From the IMG/VR virus record IMGVR_UViG_2639763169_000007: 5,313 bases of DNA; one strand, written 5' to 3'. This document shows positions 1 to 5,313 of this stretch, in pieces. Below the pieces are notes generated by a model that was not told the origin of the DNA, ran no database searches, and saw only the letters and a list, made by a program, of their open reading frames with translations. Made by a program: the position numbers and the translations under genes. Each line of letters starts with the position of its first letter. The stretch's first letter is position 1. The stretch comes from a virus. Lineage: Duplodnaviria > Heunggongvirae > Uroviricota > Caudoviricetes.

Positions 1-160
1 CAATGCAGGCTTGTCGTGTTGTGAGGTAAGGAGATTTATTCTTAGTGGGATCTTTGCGTGTTGCCTGAAGACGCCCTGTGCGTATCCAGTTAATGGCAGT
101 CGGTCTGGATATCTTGAGAAAATGACAGGCCTCATCGAGTGTGAGGCTGTATGGCTCCAT
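1..160 (-). CDS. Excisionase/AlpA-like helix-turn-helix protein (Xis-like), 5' part only; gene continues past the left edge of the window
   Basis: Manual minus-strand translation from the ATG at 160-158 gives MEPYSLTLDEACHFLKISRPTAINWIRTGRLQATRKDPTKNKSPYLTTRQACI with no stop before position 1. The L-x-L-x-E-A-x-x-L-x-I-S-x-x-T-x-x-x-W-x-x-x-G pattern is typical of phage Xis/AlpA winged-HTH proteins. An AGAGGTGA Shine-Dalgarno sits about 6 nt upstream, and the start overlaps the stop of the upstream gene (TAATG). Absent from the ORF track because it has no in-window stop. Confidence 0.6.
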   Translation of the reverse strand, partial: MEPYSLTLDEACHFLKISRPTAINWIRTGRLQATRKDPTKNKSPYLTTRQACI

Positions 161-465
161 TATTTCACCTCTTGCTGTGACATTGTTGAGAAATGGATAC
201 CAGCTCGTTGCTGCCAGACGATCCAACCGAGAGTCATATCCCATGCCATGTATTCGTTATCGCCGTTTTTTGCTCTCCGACGATCTACTAAGTCACCAAA
301 ACGCTTTTCCATGAATAATTCATAAGCTTCGCGTTCATCTGGTTCTACTTCCAGAGATAGGAGTGCGATTTCATAAGCACGGCGCTCAATATCGTCTCGC
401 ACGTCAAGGCTGCTGATACGCTCTTTAATTTCTTTAATCAGTTCTTTGTCGGTAAAAGTGGTCAT
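160..465 (-). CDS. Hypothetical prophage protein, 101 aa, mildly acidic, function unknown
   Basis: ORF track 160..465 minus (MTTFTDKELIKEIKERISSLDVRDD...). Its ATG overlaps the stop of the upstream DUF551-like ORF (TAATG) and its stop overlaps the start of the Xis-like gene (TAATG), so it is embedded in a translationally coupled operon. GGAGG lies upstream. I do not recognise the family. Confidence 0.55.
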   Translation of the reverse strand: MTTFTDKELIKEIKERISSLDVRDDIERRAYEIALLSLEVEPDEREAYELFMEKRFGDLVDRRRAKNGDNEYMAWDMTLGWIVWQQRAGIHFSTMSQQEVK

Positions 466-765
466 TATGCTCCAGCCTCCGGTGCTTTTGGCATTACTGC
501 CCAGTGAGTGATATTGACGTTTTCAAGGTCCCCGACCTGAAATGTCCACTGCCATTCTCCGGTTTCTTTTTGTCCCCAGGTGTACCAGAGAGAACGCCAG
601 CCAATTAGCCAGCCTTCTCCGTTAGCATCGAATAACAAAACACTTTCATTTGCTGGTGGCAGTTCAGTTGACACTGGTATTACTTTGTTTTCCTGTGCTG
701 CACATTTAGCTTCAAGCTCATCGAATTTACGCACCAGGTATTCAGCATCTGTTTCATTTACTTTC
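465..765 (-). pseudogene. DUF551-like prophage protein, 3' portion (about 100 codons); 5' end replaced by the IS629 terminus
   Basis: The C-terminal 100 residues of the 161-aa ORF 465..950 (…IPVSTELPPANESVLLFDANGEGWLIGWRSLWYTW…ITHWAVMPKAPE) resemble DUF551 phage proteins with a conserved THW…P C-terminus. Residues 1-61 of the listed ORF are encoded inside IS629 (boundary at 766), and no in-frame start codon exists downstream of the junction. Confidence 0.55.
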
Positions 766-807
766 TGAACCGCCCCGGGTTTCCTGGAGAGTGTTTTATC
801 TGTGAAC

Positions 808-1690
<883 letters not shown>

Positions 1691-1694
<4 letters not shown>

Positions 1695-2017
1695 TTTTTC
1701 CAGAGGCGGTCGAACTCCGCCTTCGCAAAATAAGCGGAAGCCTGGCGAAGGATATCGTTACTGCGGCGCAGTTCACGATTTTCACGCTCCAGCTCTTTCA
1801 GACGCTGACGTTCAGCGGTGGTGAGCCCTCCATCACCGCCCCCGGTATCCCGCTCATGCTGGCGACCCCAGACACGCAGAGTCTCCGGCGTACAGCCAAT
1901 CTTTGGAGCAATGGAACAAATTGTCGCCCATTGTGAGTCATATTCGCCCTGACTTTCCAGAACCATACGGACTGCCCGTTGACGGACTTCGGGGGAAAAA
2001 CGAGTATTTTTAGTCAT
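1691..2017 (-). CDS. IS629 OrfA (IS3-family transposase N-terminal HTH protein), 108 aa, intact
   Basis: ORF track 1691..2017 minus ([50 protein letters not shown]…). GAGG Shine-Dalgarno upstream inside the left IR region. Stop overlaps the orfB ATG (ATGA). Confidence 0.9.
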
Positions 2018-2071
2018 CCTGTTTACCTCTTTCTCAGGAAGTTTAGTCTCCAGGATTCCCGGGGCGGTTCA

Positions 2072-2195
2072 TAAGCGACAGTAATCGATTCTTTGTGAAC
2101 ATCTAACCCGACGTACAATGTGTTATTGTTGTTCATGCTGGCCTCCGTGGTGGAAATACCGGGGTGTAGCAACAGCTCACCCATGCGGCTCTGAC
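2072..2195 (-). pseudogene. Orphan 5' end of a transposase-like gene (possible IS110-family DEDD N-terminus), truncated by IS629
   Basis: Minus-strand ATG at 2136-2134 preceded by GGAGG at a 6-nt spacing. It encodes MNNNNTLYVGLDVHKESITVA before running into the IS629 terminus at 2071. The VGLDVHK motif resembles the G-[IVL]-D-V-x-K start of IS110-family transposases. The fragment is short and the family assignment is tentative. Confidence 0.3.
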
Positions 2196-2259
2196 TGAGG
2201 TAGCCTGAGTTTAACGGACACTCCTTCCTGAAATAGAATGGCATCAGAAGGAGCTAATA

Positions 2260-2562
2260 ATGAGCAGAAAAACCCAACGTTACTCTAAAGAGTTCAAAGC
2301 CGAAGCTGTCAGAACGGTTCTTGAAAATCAACTTTCGATCAGTGAAGGCGCTTCCCGATTATCTCTTCCTGAAGGCACTTTAGGACAATGGGTTACCGCC
2401 GCCAGAAAAGGGCTCGGTACTCCTGGTTCCCGCACGGTGGCTGAACTGGAATCTGAAATTCTGCAACTGCGTAAGGCGTTAAATGAAGCTCGCCTTGAGC
2501 GAGATATATTAAAAAAAGCAACAGCGTATTTTGCACAGGAGTCGCTGAAAAATACGCGTTAA
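2260..2562 (+). CDS. IS600 OrfA (transposase HTH / leucine-zipper subunit), 100 aa
   Basis: ORF track 2260..2562 plus (MSRKTQRYSKEFKAEAVRTVLENQLSISEGASRLSLPEGTLGQWV…). GGAG Shine-Dalgarno upstream at about 2249. Confidence 0.9.
   Translation: MSRKTQRYSKEFKAEAVRTVLENQLSISEGASRLSLPEGTLGQWVTAARKGLGTPGSRTVAELESEILQLRKALNEARLERDILKKATAYFAQESLKNTR
2511..2517 (+). other. Putative programmed -1 ribosomal frameshift site (A AAA AAA, then G) to make the OrfAB fusion transposase of IS600
   Basis: The A7G run lies in the orfA frame as TTA AAA AAA GCA. The -1 frame is open from here and reads KKSNSVFCTGVAEKYALIEQWRQQFPIEAMCQVF… straight into orfB. This is the classic IS3-family A6G/A7 slippery motif. 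Confidence 0.55.
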
Positions 2563-2597
2563 TCGAACAATGGCGACAACAATTTCCCATTGAAGCG

Positions 2598-3416
2598 ATG
2601 TGTCAGGTATTTGGTGTATCCAGGAGCGGTTATTACAACTGGGTACAGCATGAACCCTCAGACAGAAAACAAAGTGATGAGCGGCTAAAACTGGAGATTA
2701 AGGTGGCACATATCCGCACTCGCGAAACATATGGAACCCGGCGGCTCCAGACGGAGCTGGCAGAGAATGGCATCATCGTTGGTCGTGACCGACTGGCACG
2801 TCTTCGTAAGGAGCTGAGGCTACGCTGTAAGCAGAAACGCAAGTTCAGAGCGACTACGAACCCGAACCACAATCTGCCAGTTGCGCCAAATCTGCTGAAC
2901 CAGACGTTCGCTCCTACAGCACCAAATCAGGTCTGGGTGGCGGACCTGACGTATGTTGCCACACAGGAGGGATGGTTGTACCTCGCTGGCATCAAAGATG
3001 TTTATACGTGCGAAATTGTCGGCTACGCCATGGGAGAGCGCATGACAAAAGAGCTGACAGGTAAAGCCCTGTTTATGGCGCTCAGGAGCCAGCGCCCACC
3101 TGCCGGGCTAATCCACCACTCTGATCGAGGTTCACAGTACTGCGCATACGATTACCGGGTCATACAGGAGCAGTTTGGTCTGAAAACATCAATGTCGCGT
3201 AAAGGTAACTGTTACGACAACGCTCCGATGGAAAGCTTCTGGGGAACGCTGAAAAATGAGAGCCTGAGCCACTATCGTTTTAATAACCGGGATGAAGCCA
3301 TCTCAGTAATACGGGAATACATTGAGATTTTCTACAATCGTCAGCGTCGTCACTCTCGTCTGGGGAATATCTCCCCGGCAGCCTTCAGGGAAAAATATCA
3401 TCAGATGGCTGCTTAA
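2598..3416 (+). CDS. IS600 OrfB (DDE transposase catalytic domain), 272 aa from first ATG; frame open from about 2511
   Basis: ORF track 2598..3416 plus, with IS3-family catalytic motifs (…WVADLTYV…HHSDRGSQY…YDNAPMESFWGTLK…). It sits in the -1 frame relative to orfA. Confidence 0.9.
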   Translation: MCQVFGVSRSGYYNWVQHEPSDRKQSDERLKLEIKVAHIRTRETYGTRRLQTELAENGIIVGRDRLARLRKELRLRCKQKRKFRATTNPNHNLPVAPNLLNQTFAPTAPNQVWVADLTYVATQEGWLYLAGIKDVYTCEIVGYAMGERMTKELTGKALFMALRSQRPPAGLIHHSDRGSQYCAYDYRVIQEQFGLKTSMSRKGNCYDNAPMESFWGTLKNESLSHYRFNNRDEAISVIREYIEIFYNRQRRHSRLGNISPAAFREKYHQMAA

Positions 3417-3459
3417 AAAAAGAACAAATGGTAGTGTCCGCTATTGCCAGTACACCTCA

Positions 3460-3818
3460 GGGTGTTTGTCCACACCAAACCTGCCTACCGAAGCGACGGA
3501 ATAAAAACAGCAGCGGTAAGGAAGATGAGAACCGACAGCAACAAGGCATGGAAGGGAGCGTTAAAGCGGGCAGGCATTAGCAACTTCCGCTTCCATGACC
3601 TGAGGCATACCTGGGCAAGCTGGCTGGTTCAGTCCGGTGTCTCTCTTCTTGCGCTTAAAGAGATGGGAGGATGGGAAACTCTCGAAATGGTTCAAAGATA
3701 CGCCCACCTTTCAGCCGGGCATCTCACCGAGCACGCGAGCAAAATCGATGCGATTATAAGTCGCAATGGCACAAATACGGCACAAGAGGAGAACGTAGTT
3801 TACTTAAATGCGAGGTAA
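3460..3818 (+). pseudogene. int: Phage tyrosine integrase, C-terminal catalytic fragment (about 119 codons); N-terminal two-thirds missing at the IS600 boundary
   Basis: ORF 3444..3818 contains …[50 protein letters not shown]…, the H-x-x-R … RYAH(L) tyrosine-recombinase box with the catalytic Tyr. The ORF's first five codons lie inside IS600, which ends at 3459, so there is no native start. It reads toward the att core 15 bp downstream. Confidence 0.8.
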
Positions 3819-3832
3819 CTTATTGATTTAAA

Positions 3833-3878
3833 TGGTGCCGATAATAGGAGTCGAACCTACGACCTTCGCATTACGAAT
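3833..3878 (-). other. Phage attachment core: 46 bp matching the 3' end of tRNA-Thr(CGU) (thrW-type), from anticodon loop to CCA; not a complete tRNA
   Basis: The reverse complement of 3833-3878 is AATTCGTAATGCGAAGGTCGTAGGTTCGACTCCTATTATCGGCACCA, which matches the anticodon-loop, T-arm and acceptor 3' strand with CCA of E. coli tRNA-Thr(CGU) as I recall it. The sequence 5' of this (3879 onward, TATAAGAATCCGC…) does not encode the D-arm or the 5' acceptor strand. Confidence 0.75.
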
Positions 3879-4079
3879 TATAAGAATCCGCTTGTAATTC
3901 AAAGGATTATCCCATCAACACTGCGCTCACACGTCCCACCACATCAAAACATGTAAAGCCTTGCAAGCCATTGTGAGGCCTTATGTGTCTCAGTTTTGTC
4001 TCATCAGACATAGCAAGTATCGATCAATTGAGACTTGGATGATAGACTTCATGCCTTTCAGAGCTCATTGATTAAATAA

Positions 4080-4442
4080 ATGTTAAAGTTATTTGTAAAG
4101 TACACATCTATAGGTGTGCTGAACACACTTATACACTGGGTGGTTTTTGGTGTATGTATCTATACCGCACATACCAGTCAGGCTCTGGCAAACTTCACAG
4201 GTTTCGTAGTGGCTGTGAGCTTTAGCTTCTTCGCGAATGCAAGATTCACATTCAAAGCATCGACTACAGCGATGCGCTACATGTTATACGTGGGATTTAT
4301 GGGAATATTGAGTGTGATTGTTGGTTGGGCAGCTGATAAATGCTCACTTCCTCCAATAGTCACTCTTATCACCTTCTCCGCCATCAGTCTGGTGTGCGGT
4401 TTCGTCTATTCAAAGTTCATTGTCTTTAGGGATGCGAAATGA
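4080..4442 (+). CDS. gtrA: GtrA, bactoprenol-linked glucose translocase (flippase), 120 aa; O-antigen glucosylation and serotype conversion
   Basis: ORF track 4080..4442 plus. It is a small hydrophobic protein with about four predicted membrane spans ([25 protein letters not shown]…) that matches S. flexneri phage GtrA from memory. Its stop overlaps the gtrB start (ATGA). It is AT-rich compared with the IS elements. Confidence 0.9.
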
Positions 4443-5313
4443 AAATATCTCTTGTCGTTCCTGTCTTCAATGAAGAAGAAGCGATACCTGTTTTCTATAA
4501 AACGGTACGTGAATTCCAAGAGTTGAAGCCATATGAAGTAGAAATTGTATTCATAAATGACGGAAGTAAAGATGCCACAGAGTCAATTATTAACGCGCTG
4601 GCTGTTTCAGACCCGCTAGTTGTTCCGCTGTCATTTACACGCAACTTTGGTAAAGAACCAGCCTTATTTGCAGGGTTAGACCATGCAAGCGGCGATGCTG
4701 TAATTCCTATTGATGTCGACCTGCAAGACCCAATTGAGGTTATCCCTCATCTTATTGAAAAGTGGCAGGCAGGTGCTGAGATGGTGCTTGCTAAACGTTC
4801 AGACCGCTCAACTGATGGACGACTGAAACGTAAGACAGCTGAGTGGTTCTATAAATTACACAACAAAATAAGCACCCCAAAGATCGAGGAAAATGTCGGA
4901 GATTTTCGACTCATGTCTCGTGAGGTTGTGGAGAACATTAAACTGTTGCCTGAGCGCAATCTTTTCATGAAAGGCATACTGAGCTGGGTGGGTGGTCAGA
5001 CGGATGTCGTTGAATATGTACGCGCAGAGCGTGTTGCTGGCATCTCAAAATTTAATGGCTGGAAATTATGGAATCTGGCACTGGAAGGTATCACAAGTTT
5101 TTCAACCTTTCCTCTTCGCGTATGGACTTATATAGGCTTGTTTGTTGCAAGCATTTCATTTTTATATGGTGCATGGATGATTATAGACACCCTTGTCTTT
5201 GGTAACCCAGTACGCGGGTATCCCTCCCTGCTTGTATCAATACTTTTCTTGGGTGGAGTGCAACTGATCGGGATTGGTGTTCTCGGTGAATATATAGGTA
5301 GAATTTACTTAGA
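4439..5313 (+). CDS. gtrB: GtrB, bactoprenol glucosyltransferase (GT2 family), first 291 codons; 3' end beyond the window
   Basis: Manual translation from the ATG at 4439 gives [26 protein letters not shown]…[14 protein letters not shown]…DVDLQDP…[11 protein letters not shown]…, followed by C-terminal membrane spans, with no stop before the window ends. It has the GT2 fold signature and matches GtrB from memory. Absent from the ORF track because it has no stop. Confidence 0.9.

Follow-up and report, generated by a model that had tools for sequence, protein, structure and literature searches.

An integrase stub, att core and gtrAB order at thrW in Shigella flexneri: probable attR end of an SfI-type prophage abutting an older integrase fossil

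When the 3′ end of a tyrosine integrase gene runs into a tRNA-derived att core and then into gtrA and gtrB, it must be asked whether one phage has been fixed in its circular order or whether an ordinary prophage end lies beside something older. This question was raised by positions 3460–5313 of a 5,313-nucleotide stretch of DNA (IMG/VR record IMGVR_UViG_2639763169_000007), referred to here as the window. An earlier note made from the sequence alone had read the int–core–gtrA order as that of one circular serotype-converting phage genome (attP), not expected in an integrated prophage and frozen in place by IS damage. The int 3′ end, the core and gtrA–gtrB that it had listed were all present, with essentially the same coordinates, and are given below for the right half of the window.

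3460–3818, plus strand: tyrosine integrase 3′ end of SfX/mEpX2 type, 359 nt, 118 codons and the stop
3833–3878, minus strand: att core, 46 bp, the 3′ end of the tRNA-Thr(CGU) gene thrW and probable attR crossover region
3879–4079, plus strand: P′ arm of SfI/SfII/SfV type, the attP-to-gtrA spacer, from alignment to phages
4080–4442, plus strand: gtrA, 120 aa (GtrA_DPMS_TM, PF04138)
4439–5313, plus strand: gtrB, bactoprenol glucosyltransferase (Glycos_transf_2, PF00535)

The core matched the published 46-bp att core (sequence in PMC3636060) at 46 of 46 positions, with no match expected from 200 shuffles. It was identical in SfI, SfV, SfX and mEpX2, and in related chromosomes the same 46 nt closed a full tRNA-Thr(CGT) gene, thrW, at its 3′ end. 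In the window the thrW sequence was limited to these 46 nt and did not extend to a full tRNA. ARAGORN returned zero complete tRNAs there, and the adjoining 45 nt on the gtrA side of the core were phage arm and not a tRNA 5′ half.

The integrase stub abutted IS600 at 3460 and ended with a stop codon at 3816–3818. It retained 359 of 1161 nt, beginning at about int nucleotide 803, and about 69% of the gene was missing from the 5′ end, which bore out the reported loss of the N-terminal two-thirds at the IS600 boundary. The Pfam Phage_integrase (PF00589) match covered profile positions 101–170 of 172 (E 4e-19). With 118 of about 386 residues left, the stub fell short of the complete catalytic, N-terminal arm-binding and core-binding domains. 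Its identity was 98.6% with SfX int (U82084) and 99.0% with that of mEpX2; over 3461–3814 the values were 98.3% for SfX, 98.9% for mEpX2 and no more than 68% for SfI and SfV.

Aligned to the Sf phages, the two sides of the core went separate ways, against the reading of a single phage. On the left, the int 3′ end, spacer and core of SfX (U82084) and of the thrW-integrating lambdoids mEpX2, HK75 and HK542 were 98.6–99% identical to 3460–3878, whereas beyond the core, on the right, these four phages were unrelated to 3879–4079; mEpX2, HK75 and HK542 had no gtr genes there. On the right, the attP regions of SfI, SfII and SfV had the same gene order as the window and were 99–100% identical to it in the core, the 201-bp spacer, gtrA and gtrB, but differed in the phage int, with its 68% identity to the window fragment. 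The 201-bp arm was identical to SfI at 201 of 201 positions and to SfV at 199 of 201, and could not be aligned to SfX or mEpX2. Positions 3815–3878 were common to SfI, SfV, SfX and mEpX2, and high identity to SfI, SfII and SfV began at 3815, at the int stop codon. Comparison with phage records found both arms together in none of them. The att site is chimeric, with an int arm of SfX/mEpX2 type and a gtrA arm of SfI/SfV type; consequently, the interpretation as a circular phage order frozen in place fails. Terminator-like hairpins were located at 3958–3992 within the P′ arm, and the SfII record annotates a terminator under the matching stretch; a promoter scan of 3750–4150 gave no sigma-70-like site and only two terminator-like hairpins.

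This P′ arm ran into gtrA, which began 201 bp beyond the core and had 99% or higher identity to gtrA of SfI, SfII and SfV. The exact GtrA protein was present in many Shigella chromosomes. gtrA and gtrB overlapped by 4 nt (4439–4442), as a gtr operon with a GtrA gene and an overlapping GT2 gene does. The first 291 of the 306 gtrB codons were inside the window, with no stop codon in the translation and the frame open to the window end; together with the state of both genes in relatives, this agreed with the earlier impression that gtrA and gtrB are intact. gtrB was 99.8% identical to SfI gtrB, and the match reached the last window base only for SfI-type sequences. The window ended inside gtrB, and in relatives gtrI (506 aa) followed directly, as had been expected of a type-specific gtr gene; in the relative L002/L019 it was split into parts of 319 and 180 aa. 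gtrA and gtrB, combined with a type-specific transferase (gtrI in the closest relatives), would be predicted to serve O-antigen glucosylation, the established role of this gene family.

Related loci were collected as 20 chromosomal places (numbered with L) from exact-protein look-ups with GtrA and the 97-aa int ORF, and a breakpoint probe of 41 nt was taken across the IS600–int boundary (window 3440–3480). The probe matched perfectly (0 mismatches) both in the window and in loci with five different partners beyond the core. In L026, the IS600–intX′ stub and core were followed by the thrW 5′ half and proA, forming a full tRNA-Thr by ARAGORN and thus an unoccupied site. The same stub and core were followed by an SfI/SfII-type arm with gtrI in L001–L010, by an SfI/SfII-type arm with gtrII in L021 and L025 (= AE014073), by a gtrIV-like arm in L024, and by an SfX-type arm and a podovirus tail module in L022, where adrA–IS629–IS600 lay on the other side. 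Since the stub stood beside a bare thrW and beside four types of gtr cluster, it is a host-resident fossil of an older phage beside thrW, distinct from the gtr phage's own int. The gtrA–attR end of any thrW-integrating Sf phage would therefore join this stub, and the host-side arm of the window was the very sequence found downstream of thrW at the unoccupied site.

The recurrence of the breakpoint also weighed most heavily on the idea that the window holds the genuine attP region of one serotype-converting phage, kept in circular order by, for example, dilysogeny or aberrant capture, with the 5′ two-thirds of its own int lost to IS600. The gene order is that of the SfI, SfII, SfV and SfX phage genomes, SfX itself carries this int type, and, the int modules of lambdoid phages being mosaic, a recombinant phage can be imagined. 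L026 also contained a full-length intX-type int abutting core–gtrA–gtrB–gtr(417 aa)–tail genes, next to the unoccupied-looking thrW. However, the two arms were combined in no sequenced phage, and a phage-borne int cannot explain one IS600 breakpoint beside an intact thrW and four cluster types; the stub was not specific to a phage with the adjacent gtr cluster. The reading is very unlikely, being largely refuted by the breakpoint recurrence. Against the fossil reading, the complete SfX-type int of L026, contiguous with its core, gtr genes and tail genes, implies that an intX-type int and an SfV-type arm are joined in some phage or tandem partner.

Experimental lysogens have been described with junctions of this kind. 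In laboratory lysogens, attR was sequenced as gtrA–core–host "putative phage int" (Sun et al., 2011, PMC3306764), and their junction E is such a single-lysogen attR. In the same work, sequencing across an SfI/SfX tandem gave gtrA(I)–core–intX (PMC3306764 supplement); this junction F consists of the gtrA(I) spacer, the 46-bp core and the intX 3′ end, and its two arms are those of window 3805–4085. That such junctions arise as attR or as tandem junctions (PMC3306764) is a further point against a single-phage attP. Among the conserved host genes from thrW to yaiC, that study lists a putative int, IS600 and IS629 (PMC3306764). The laboratory strain differed from the window in that its intX lay inside a complete SfX prophage and its host fossil was Sf-type, whereas intX in the window is an IS600-truncated stub (PMC3306764). 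Since the host int remnant beside thrW in strain 036 is Sf-type and not intX-type (PMC3306764), S. flexneri strains differ in the fossil they carry, a point against the fossil reading.

The documented SfI–SfX tandem integration, with the same junction type (PMC3306764), makes it conceivable that two full prophages, a gtr phage and an SfX-like one, integrated side by side in the recent past, as they did in strains of serotype 1d or 2b-like strains, and that the stub is what an IS600 insertion and deletion in this lineage left of the SfX-like neighbor's int and not an old host-wide fossil. The stub was still 98.6–99% identical to the int of SfX, mEpX2 and related phages, and in L023, a tandem array of P22-like early genes, xis, intX::IS600, core, gtrA–gtrB–gtrII and SfII tail genes, the int of an SfX-like prophage abutted core–gtrA(II). 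In L022 and L023, however, the SfX-like prophage int had its IS600 elsewhere, and the 359-nt stub with the window breakpoint was separate, at the adrA end; the stub also stood at the unoccupied thrW of L026. A recent tandem is accordingly highly improbable; it differs from an older fossil solely in the age of the neighbor.

The closest relatives were serotype 1 strains including Y394, with 99.9% identity over window 2195–5313. Their order continued as gtrA–gtrB–gtrI–tail fiber remnant (99.83% identical to SfI), IS600, an Sf-type int, full thrW and proA–proB. The Sf-type int on the thrW side lacked its first 195 nt, was cut by IS600 and was 98.9% identical to SfI; in L001-type loci this SfI-type int without nt 1–195 lay at 15226–16195 and thrW at 16209–16284. 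Comparison with the proA–thrW region of these chromosomes thus gave the canonical integrated layout, since the prophage's own Sf-type int lay beside thrW at the opposite end, and not the abnormal order proposed at the outset. This int, continuous with SfI sequence at the thrW end in the nearest relatives, likewise speaks against a single-phage attP. Because the window ends inside gtrB, its right-hand context (gtrI, the cognate int and thrW) is that expected from the relatives.

In the relatives, most of the prophage genome was deleted beside IS600 (also PMC5596473), and its own int lacked the 195 nt, so the earlier description of a cryptic prophage that kept its gtr cargo holds there. Y394 (L010 = CP020753) is described as having the SHI-O island, a cryptic SfI prophage; oacB there lies 6.8 kb upstream of gtrA (PMC5596473). 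The distance of oacB was about 6.8 kb in the SHI-O relatives examined here (L010 and others), agreeing with the published value. Like the window, the SHI-O/cryptic SfI gtrI locus of Y394 and Y53 had the IS600–int stub–core–gtrA–gtrB order, and the SHI-O relatives had an xis–orf28–orf29′–IS629 block on the left. The window differed from them in stopping short of gtrI and in having an ISSso6 fragment of about 125 bp, instead of a 43-bp spacer, between IS629 and IS600.

We judge it roughly 90% probable that window 3460–5313 shows the attR end at which an SfI-type serotype-converting prophage, integrated in thrW of a Shigella flexneri chromosome, abuts a host fossil, and we infer the order of integration events as follows. 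The fossil, consisting of the last 359 nt of an SfX/mEpX2-type int cut off by IS600, beyond which lies IS629, would already have lain downstream of thrW. An Int-mediated crossover inside the 46-bp core would then have sent the Sf phage's own int to the thrW side (attL), and the gtrA-proximal arm would have joined, via its core copy, whatever lay downstream of thrW, in this case the fossil. The outcome would be int stub–core–gtrA–gtrB, an order that owes nothing to a preserved circular genome.

The left half of the window bears on the surroundings of the stub and comprised the following features.

1–253, minus strand: 5′ part of an Sf-type xis, first 253 nt, continuing past the left window edge
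160–465, minus strand: orf28, SfV orf28 homologue, 101 aa, from the ORF list and SfV annotation
465–765, minus strand: orf29 (DUF551), SfV orf29 homologue without its first ~59 nt, cut by IS629
766–2071, minus strand: IS629-like element of the IS3 family, 99% identical to IS629/IS3-family copies of E. coli and Shigella
2017–1691, minus strand: IS629-like orfA, inside 766–2071
1736–1620, minus strand: IS629 frameshift pseudoknot (Rfam ALIL pseudoknot, 116 bits)
2072–2195, minus strand: 5′ fragment of ISSso6 (IS110-like), ~125 bp, between IS629 and IS600
2196–3459, plus strand: IS600, complete, 1264 bp with both ends, from sequence comparison

The xis–orf28–orf29 block had 99.1–99.6% identity with its SfIV, SfV and SfII counterparts. 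An HTH_17 profile matched the xis fragment, a DUF551 profile matched orf29, and the SfV orf29 match stopped at 765–768. The earlier statement that this side lacks xis is only partly correct. An Sf-type xis does contribute its first 253 nt at 253–1 on the minus strand, and the statement is right to the extent that this fragment comes from a different prophage remnant than the int stub at 3460. An Rfam scan of the window found no structured RNA besides the ALIL pseudoknot.

A simple insertion of IS600 is expected to leave an identical 3 bp target-site duplication. At 2196–3459 the flanking triplets read from the sequence were unlike (GAC before the element, GGG after it), with no target-site duplication, which fits an IS-associated deletion or rearrangement and not a simple insertion. 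The xis′–orf28–orf29′ block was inverted relative to gtr. Its placement is best explained by IS629/IS600-mediated inversion within a stack of serially integrated, IS-eroded prophages extending from proA–thrW to adrA, a mechanism we infer. The possibility that the window stub and the int 5′ part beside xis (L001 5217–5934) are halves of one IS600-split, inverted int was considered and rejected, because that 5′ part is Sf-type (99% SfV, stopping at about int nt 718) and has its own 3′ part across IS600-C (L001 3503–3965), and the window stub is SfX-type from about nt 803. Strain 2457T had two Sf-type int copies, both broken at the same xis position.

With three IS elements back to back in the window, a misjoining of the int stub and gtr across repeated IS copies during assembly was also considered. 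Window 2070–2195 was 100% identical to annotated ISSso6 copies, and this fragment was absent from the IS629–IS600 spacer in 20 of 20 related chromosomal loci, complete genomes that had an unrelated 43-bp spacer there. However, the int′–core–gtrA junction lies outside the IS copies and was identical base for base in more than 10 independent complete chromosomes, so that an artefact is extremely improbable.

A comparable boundary was found in E. coli K-12, where the right boundary of CP4-6 (the ptwF pseudo-tRNA by yagP) has a second copy of the thrW core after a short int 3′-end remnant, with about 115 bp at 90% identity to window 3764–3878. It differs from the window in retaining only about 55 bp of int, in being more diverged and in lacking IS600. 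This boundary is thus an earlier instance of such a fossil at the thrW hotspot. An SfI-like prophage likewise abutted a CP4-6-type fossil in E. coli YZ22MPE54.

It is possible, although doubtful, that the module of L001 type bracketed by two direct IS600 copies (intX′ stub–core–gtrA–gtrB–gtrI–tail-fiber remnant) forms a serotype cassette that can be lost or mobilized, or that its cores can be recombined in trans. If so, IS600 × IS600 recombination would delete the module and leave thrW–Sf-int′–IS600–IS629; alternatively, the two intact cores on either side of the remnant might still be recombined by Int and Xis supplied in trans from a superinfecting Sf phage. By either route, a "dead" prophage would permit reversible or transferable serotype switching. 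The thrW–Sf-int′–IS600–IS629 arrangement resembles the "attB" flank reported for the serotype Y strain 036.

The locus is the known SHI-O/cryptic SfI region, an ordinary prophage right end that has already been described. The existing picture of SHI-O is unchanged by the present result, whose main value is as a correction. This region sets the serotype of S. flexneri and is relevant to sequence-based serotyping and to O-antigen vaccines. An int stub–att core–cargo order in a chromosome should be taken as a captured attP only once both arms have been traced to one element. Earlier integrations at tRNA hotspots, thrW among them, leave int fossils behind, and every later prophage there then shows an attP-like cargo end.

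The window was mapped over its 5313 bases by ORF, Pfam and similarity searches, giving the following features.

1-765, minus strand: first 253 nt of an excisionase gene (xis), then homologues of orf28 and of orf29 (DUF551), the latter without its start
766-2071: IS629-like element of the IS3 family with an ALIL frameshift pseudoknot
2072-2195: ISSso6 fragment (5' end of an IS110-like element), about 125 bp, 100% identity (match spans 2070-2195)
2196-3459: complete IS600, 1264 bp
3460-3818: 3'-terminal 359 nt of a tyrosine-integrase gene, covering positions 101-170 of the 172 in the Pfam Phage_integrase profile
3833-3878, minus strand: 46-bp att core, identical to the 3' end of the tRNA-Thr(CGU) gene thrW
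3879-4079: 201-bp spacer from core to gtrA with two terminator-like hairpins
4080-4442: gtrA (PF04138)
4439 to the window end: gtrB (PF00535), 291 codons open to the end

Every structural detail in the earlier note was confirmed by the ORF, Pfam, similarity and ARAGORN results; the one omission was an incomplete xis that lies inverted at the left edge. The block at 1-765 was 99.1-99.6% identical to its counterpart in SfIV, SfV and SfII. The core matched at 46/46 positions, with 0 matches in 200 shuffles, and is the sequence published for SfI, SfII, SfV and SfX (PMC3636060); ARAGORN found no complete tRNA in the window. In the IS629 copy, the transposase orfB is seemingly broken (ORF pieces 808-1476 and 1338-1694, 222 and 118 aa), and the upstream orfA (1691-2017) and pseudoknot look intact. 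The attL-proximal Sf-type module xis'-orf28-orf29' (window 1-765; also 4087-8654 in the Shigella locus L021) is inverted and has its orf29 cut by IS629; a mere 3.3 kb separates it from the attR-proximal gtr module.

The earlier note had interpreted the int-core-gtrA-gtrB order as that of a circular phage genome, frozen in place by IS damage. A genuine single-phage attP should have both arms from one phage, whereas the P and P' arms of the window come from different elements. In a megablast of the window against phage records, the matches divided at the core. SfI, SfII and SfV matched at 99.1-99.8% only from 3815 rightwards, just 5' of the int stop codon, and 3460-3878 matched another set at 98.6-99% (mEpX2, HK75, HK542, mEp213, HK446 and the SfX int record U82084). 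Over the int part (3461-3814), identity was 98.3% with SfX and 98.9% with mEpX2, against 68.0% with SfI and 67.7% with SfV. The stop codon, spacer and core (3815-3878) were identical at 64/64 positions in SfX, mEpX2 and SfV and at 63/64 in SfI. The gtrA-side arm (3879-4079) matched SfI at 201/201 and SfV at 199/201 positions and was effectively unalignable with SfX and mEpX2 (58-65%). None of the megablast matches to phage records spanned both att arms. The arm switch falls inside the shared core region, the site of Int-mediated crossover, and these alignments show the junction to be chimeric: a resident int fossil of SfX type is joined to a P' arm of SfI type.

A second look-up with the 97-aa ORF inside the integrase stub retrieved further chromosomes. 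A 41-nt probe across the IS600-int breakpoint was found with zero mismatches in loci with five different partners next after the core: the thrW 5' half and proA, an unoccupied site with a full tRNA-Thr by ARAGORN (L026); an SfI/SfII-type arm with gtrI (L001-L010, L018-L020); the same type of arm with gtrII (L021 and L025, the latter AE014073); a variant arm with a gtrIV-like gene of 437 aa (L024); and an SfX-type arm leading into gtrA-gtrB-gtr, a tailspike and P22-like genes (L022, in which the stub has adrA-IS629-IS600 on its opposite flank). Since a single IS600 insertion event cannot belong to five phages, the breakpoint belongs to the host locus, and by this probe the fossil is present at unoccupied sites. 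Locus L023, from the same assembly as L022, carries a tandem array of P22-like early genes, xis, intX, core, gtrA-gtrB-gtrII and SfII tail genes, in which intX is interrupted by IS600 at a position other than that of the stub.

A second thrW core copy (ptwF) occurs in E. coli (L017 5210-5323, K-12, CP4-6 right end near yagP; L014 6943-7060), preceded by about 55 bp that are about 90% identical to the SfX-type int 3' end; this int remnant is a comparable fossil, older and shorter. It is adjoined in E. coli YZ22MPE54 by an SfI-like prophage that carries a 506-aa GT39 gene.

Searching for exact copies of the GtrA protein gave ten complete chromosomes, including CP020753 (S. flexneri 1c strain Y394); outside the ISSso6 spacer, the window was 99.7-99.9% identical to them. 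The ISSso6 fragment lies exactly between the IS629 and IS600 ends, and all 20 related Shigella loci have an unrelated 43-bp spacer instead, which places the strain or lineage of the window outside the set fetched. In window orientation, the relatives carry oacB and an SfX-type P' arm with a core copy; then a minus-strand block consisting of an Sf-type int split by IS600, xis, orf28 and orf29'; then IS629, the 43-bp spacer, IS600, the int stub and a core copy; then gtrA, gtrB, gtrI (506 aa) and a tail-fibre-assembly remnant; and finally IS600, an Sf-type int without its first 195 nt (98.9% SfI), a complete thrW, proA and proB. The whole stretch from gtrA through the tail-fibre-assembly remnant is 99.83% SfI. 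With its own int beside thrW at one end and gtrA and a core copy at the other, the SfI remnant has the canonical, integrated layout. The comparison shows the cognate int at thrW in the relatives, and the stub, lying beyond the gtrA end of the remnant, belongs to another element. With the chimeric arms and the five partners of the stub, this position refutes the frozen circular order, the main interpretation of the earlier note.

Two of the loci hold further arrangements. In L026 (6014-10384), core-gtrA-gtrB-gtr (417 aa)-SfV-like tail genes directly adjoin a complete SfX-type int of 386 aa; a single IS600, ending 8 bp short of the start codon of this int, separates it from the stub-thrW-proA empty site. 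This order could not be derived from a simple array and leaves room, at a small probability, for phages or neighbours combining intX with an SfV-type arm. In 2457T (L025), two Sf-type int-xis' copies in opposite orientation (7327-8684 and 19470-20294) are both broken at the same xis position (coordinate 2706 of the SfV locus L013), each against an IS600, the two IS600 copies being inverted. Together they bracket the stub-core-gtrA-gtrB-gtrII block, and this inverted duplication could allow flipping of the central block.

For the prophage beside the fossil, we propose that an SfI-type phage entered the chromosome through Int-mediated recombination inside the 46-bp thrW core, leaving the phage's own int at attL and its gtr end against the fossil at attR. 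IS600 would later have deleted some 33 kb of prophage DNA together with the initial 195 nt of the phage's int. The position of the xis-orf28-orf29' block, inverted relative to gtr and beside IS629, is best explained by recombination between IS copies. The L021 order, thrW-int::IS600-xis-orf28-orf29'-IS629-43 bp-IS600-stub-core-gtrA, is consistent with the prophage interior having been flipped by recombination of an IS629 in orf29 with the resident IS629. No matching target duplication was found at the stub-side IS600 (window 2193-2195/3460-3462) or at the IS600 truncating the SfI remnant (L001 13959-13961/15226-15228), and such flanks fit IS-associated deletions or inter-copy recombination more than simple insertions.

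A distance of 288 bp separates the O-acetyltransferase gene oacB from a thrW core copy (L001 1996-3502; also L025 5866-7372), with an Sf-type int on the far side of the core. Within these 288 bp, a stretch of 217 bp (L001 3240-3456) matches the SfX/mEpX2 P' arm at 95-96% identity. The gene thus sits where a phage that integrates at thrW and has an SfX-type attP carries its cargo, which suggests delivery of oacB by such a phage. Published accounts describe a 'transposon-like structure' for oacB.

Sun et al. (2011; PMC3306764) made serotype Y strain 036 lysogenic first for SfX and afterwards for SfI, and determined the sequence of all the junctions. In these lysogens attR was gtrA-core-host 'putative phage int', and the SfI/SfX junction was gtrA(I) spacer-core-intX, the identical pair of arms to that of the window. 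A putative integrase, IS600 and IS629 were described there as conserved host genes between thrW and yaiC (adrA). According to the Y394 genome paper (PMC5596473), the gtrI cluster belongs to a cryptic SfI prophage between proA and adrA (SHI-O), and oacB is located 6.8 kb upstream of gtrA; the loci fetched here agree with this.

The feature lies in the SHI-O region of Shigella flexneri and is an ordinary attR end, at which an SfI-type prophage, probably a cryptic one, adjoins an integrase fossil older than itself. The earlier note had held excision to be no longer possible, and autonomous excision is indeed unlikely: all three int copies seen in the L001-type locus of the relatives are damaged (the 359-nt stub, the IS600-split copy and the copy without 195 nt). 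The note's view of an apparently intact gtr cargo, with the type-specific gene 3' of gtrB, also holds in the relatives, the window itself ending inside gtrB. In CP026871 (L002 11283-12804/L019 11838-13359), the type-specific gene, a single 506-aa ORF in the other relatives, is called as ORFs of 319 and 180 aa, so that the gtrI cargo is probably inactivated in that strain. GtrB makes undecaprenyl-phosphate-glucose, GtrA probably flips this product across the membrane, and transfer of the glucose to the O-antigen is the task of the type-specific Gtr; the role assigned to the gtr genes of the window is that predicted from this established family knowledge. The arrangement of an attR end beside the fossil in SHI-O is an already known locus.
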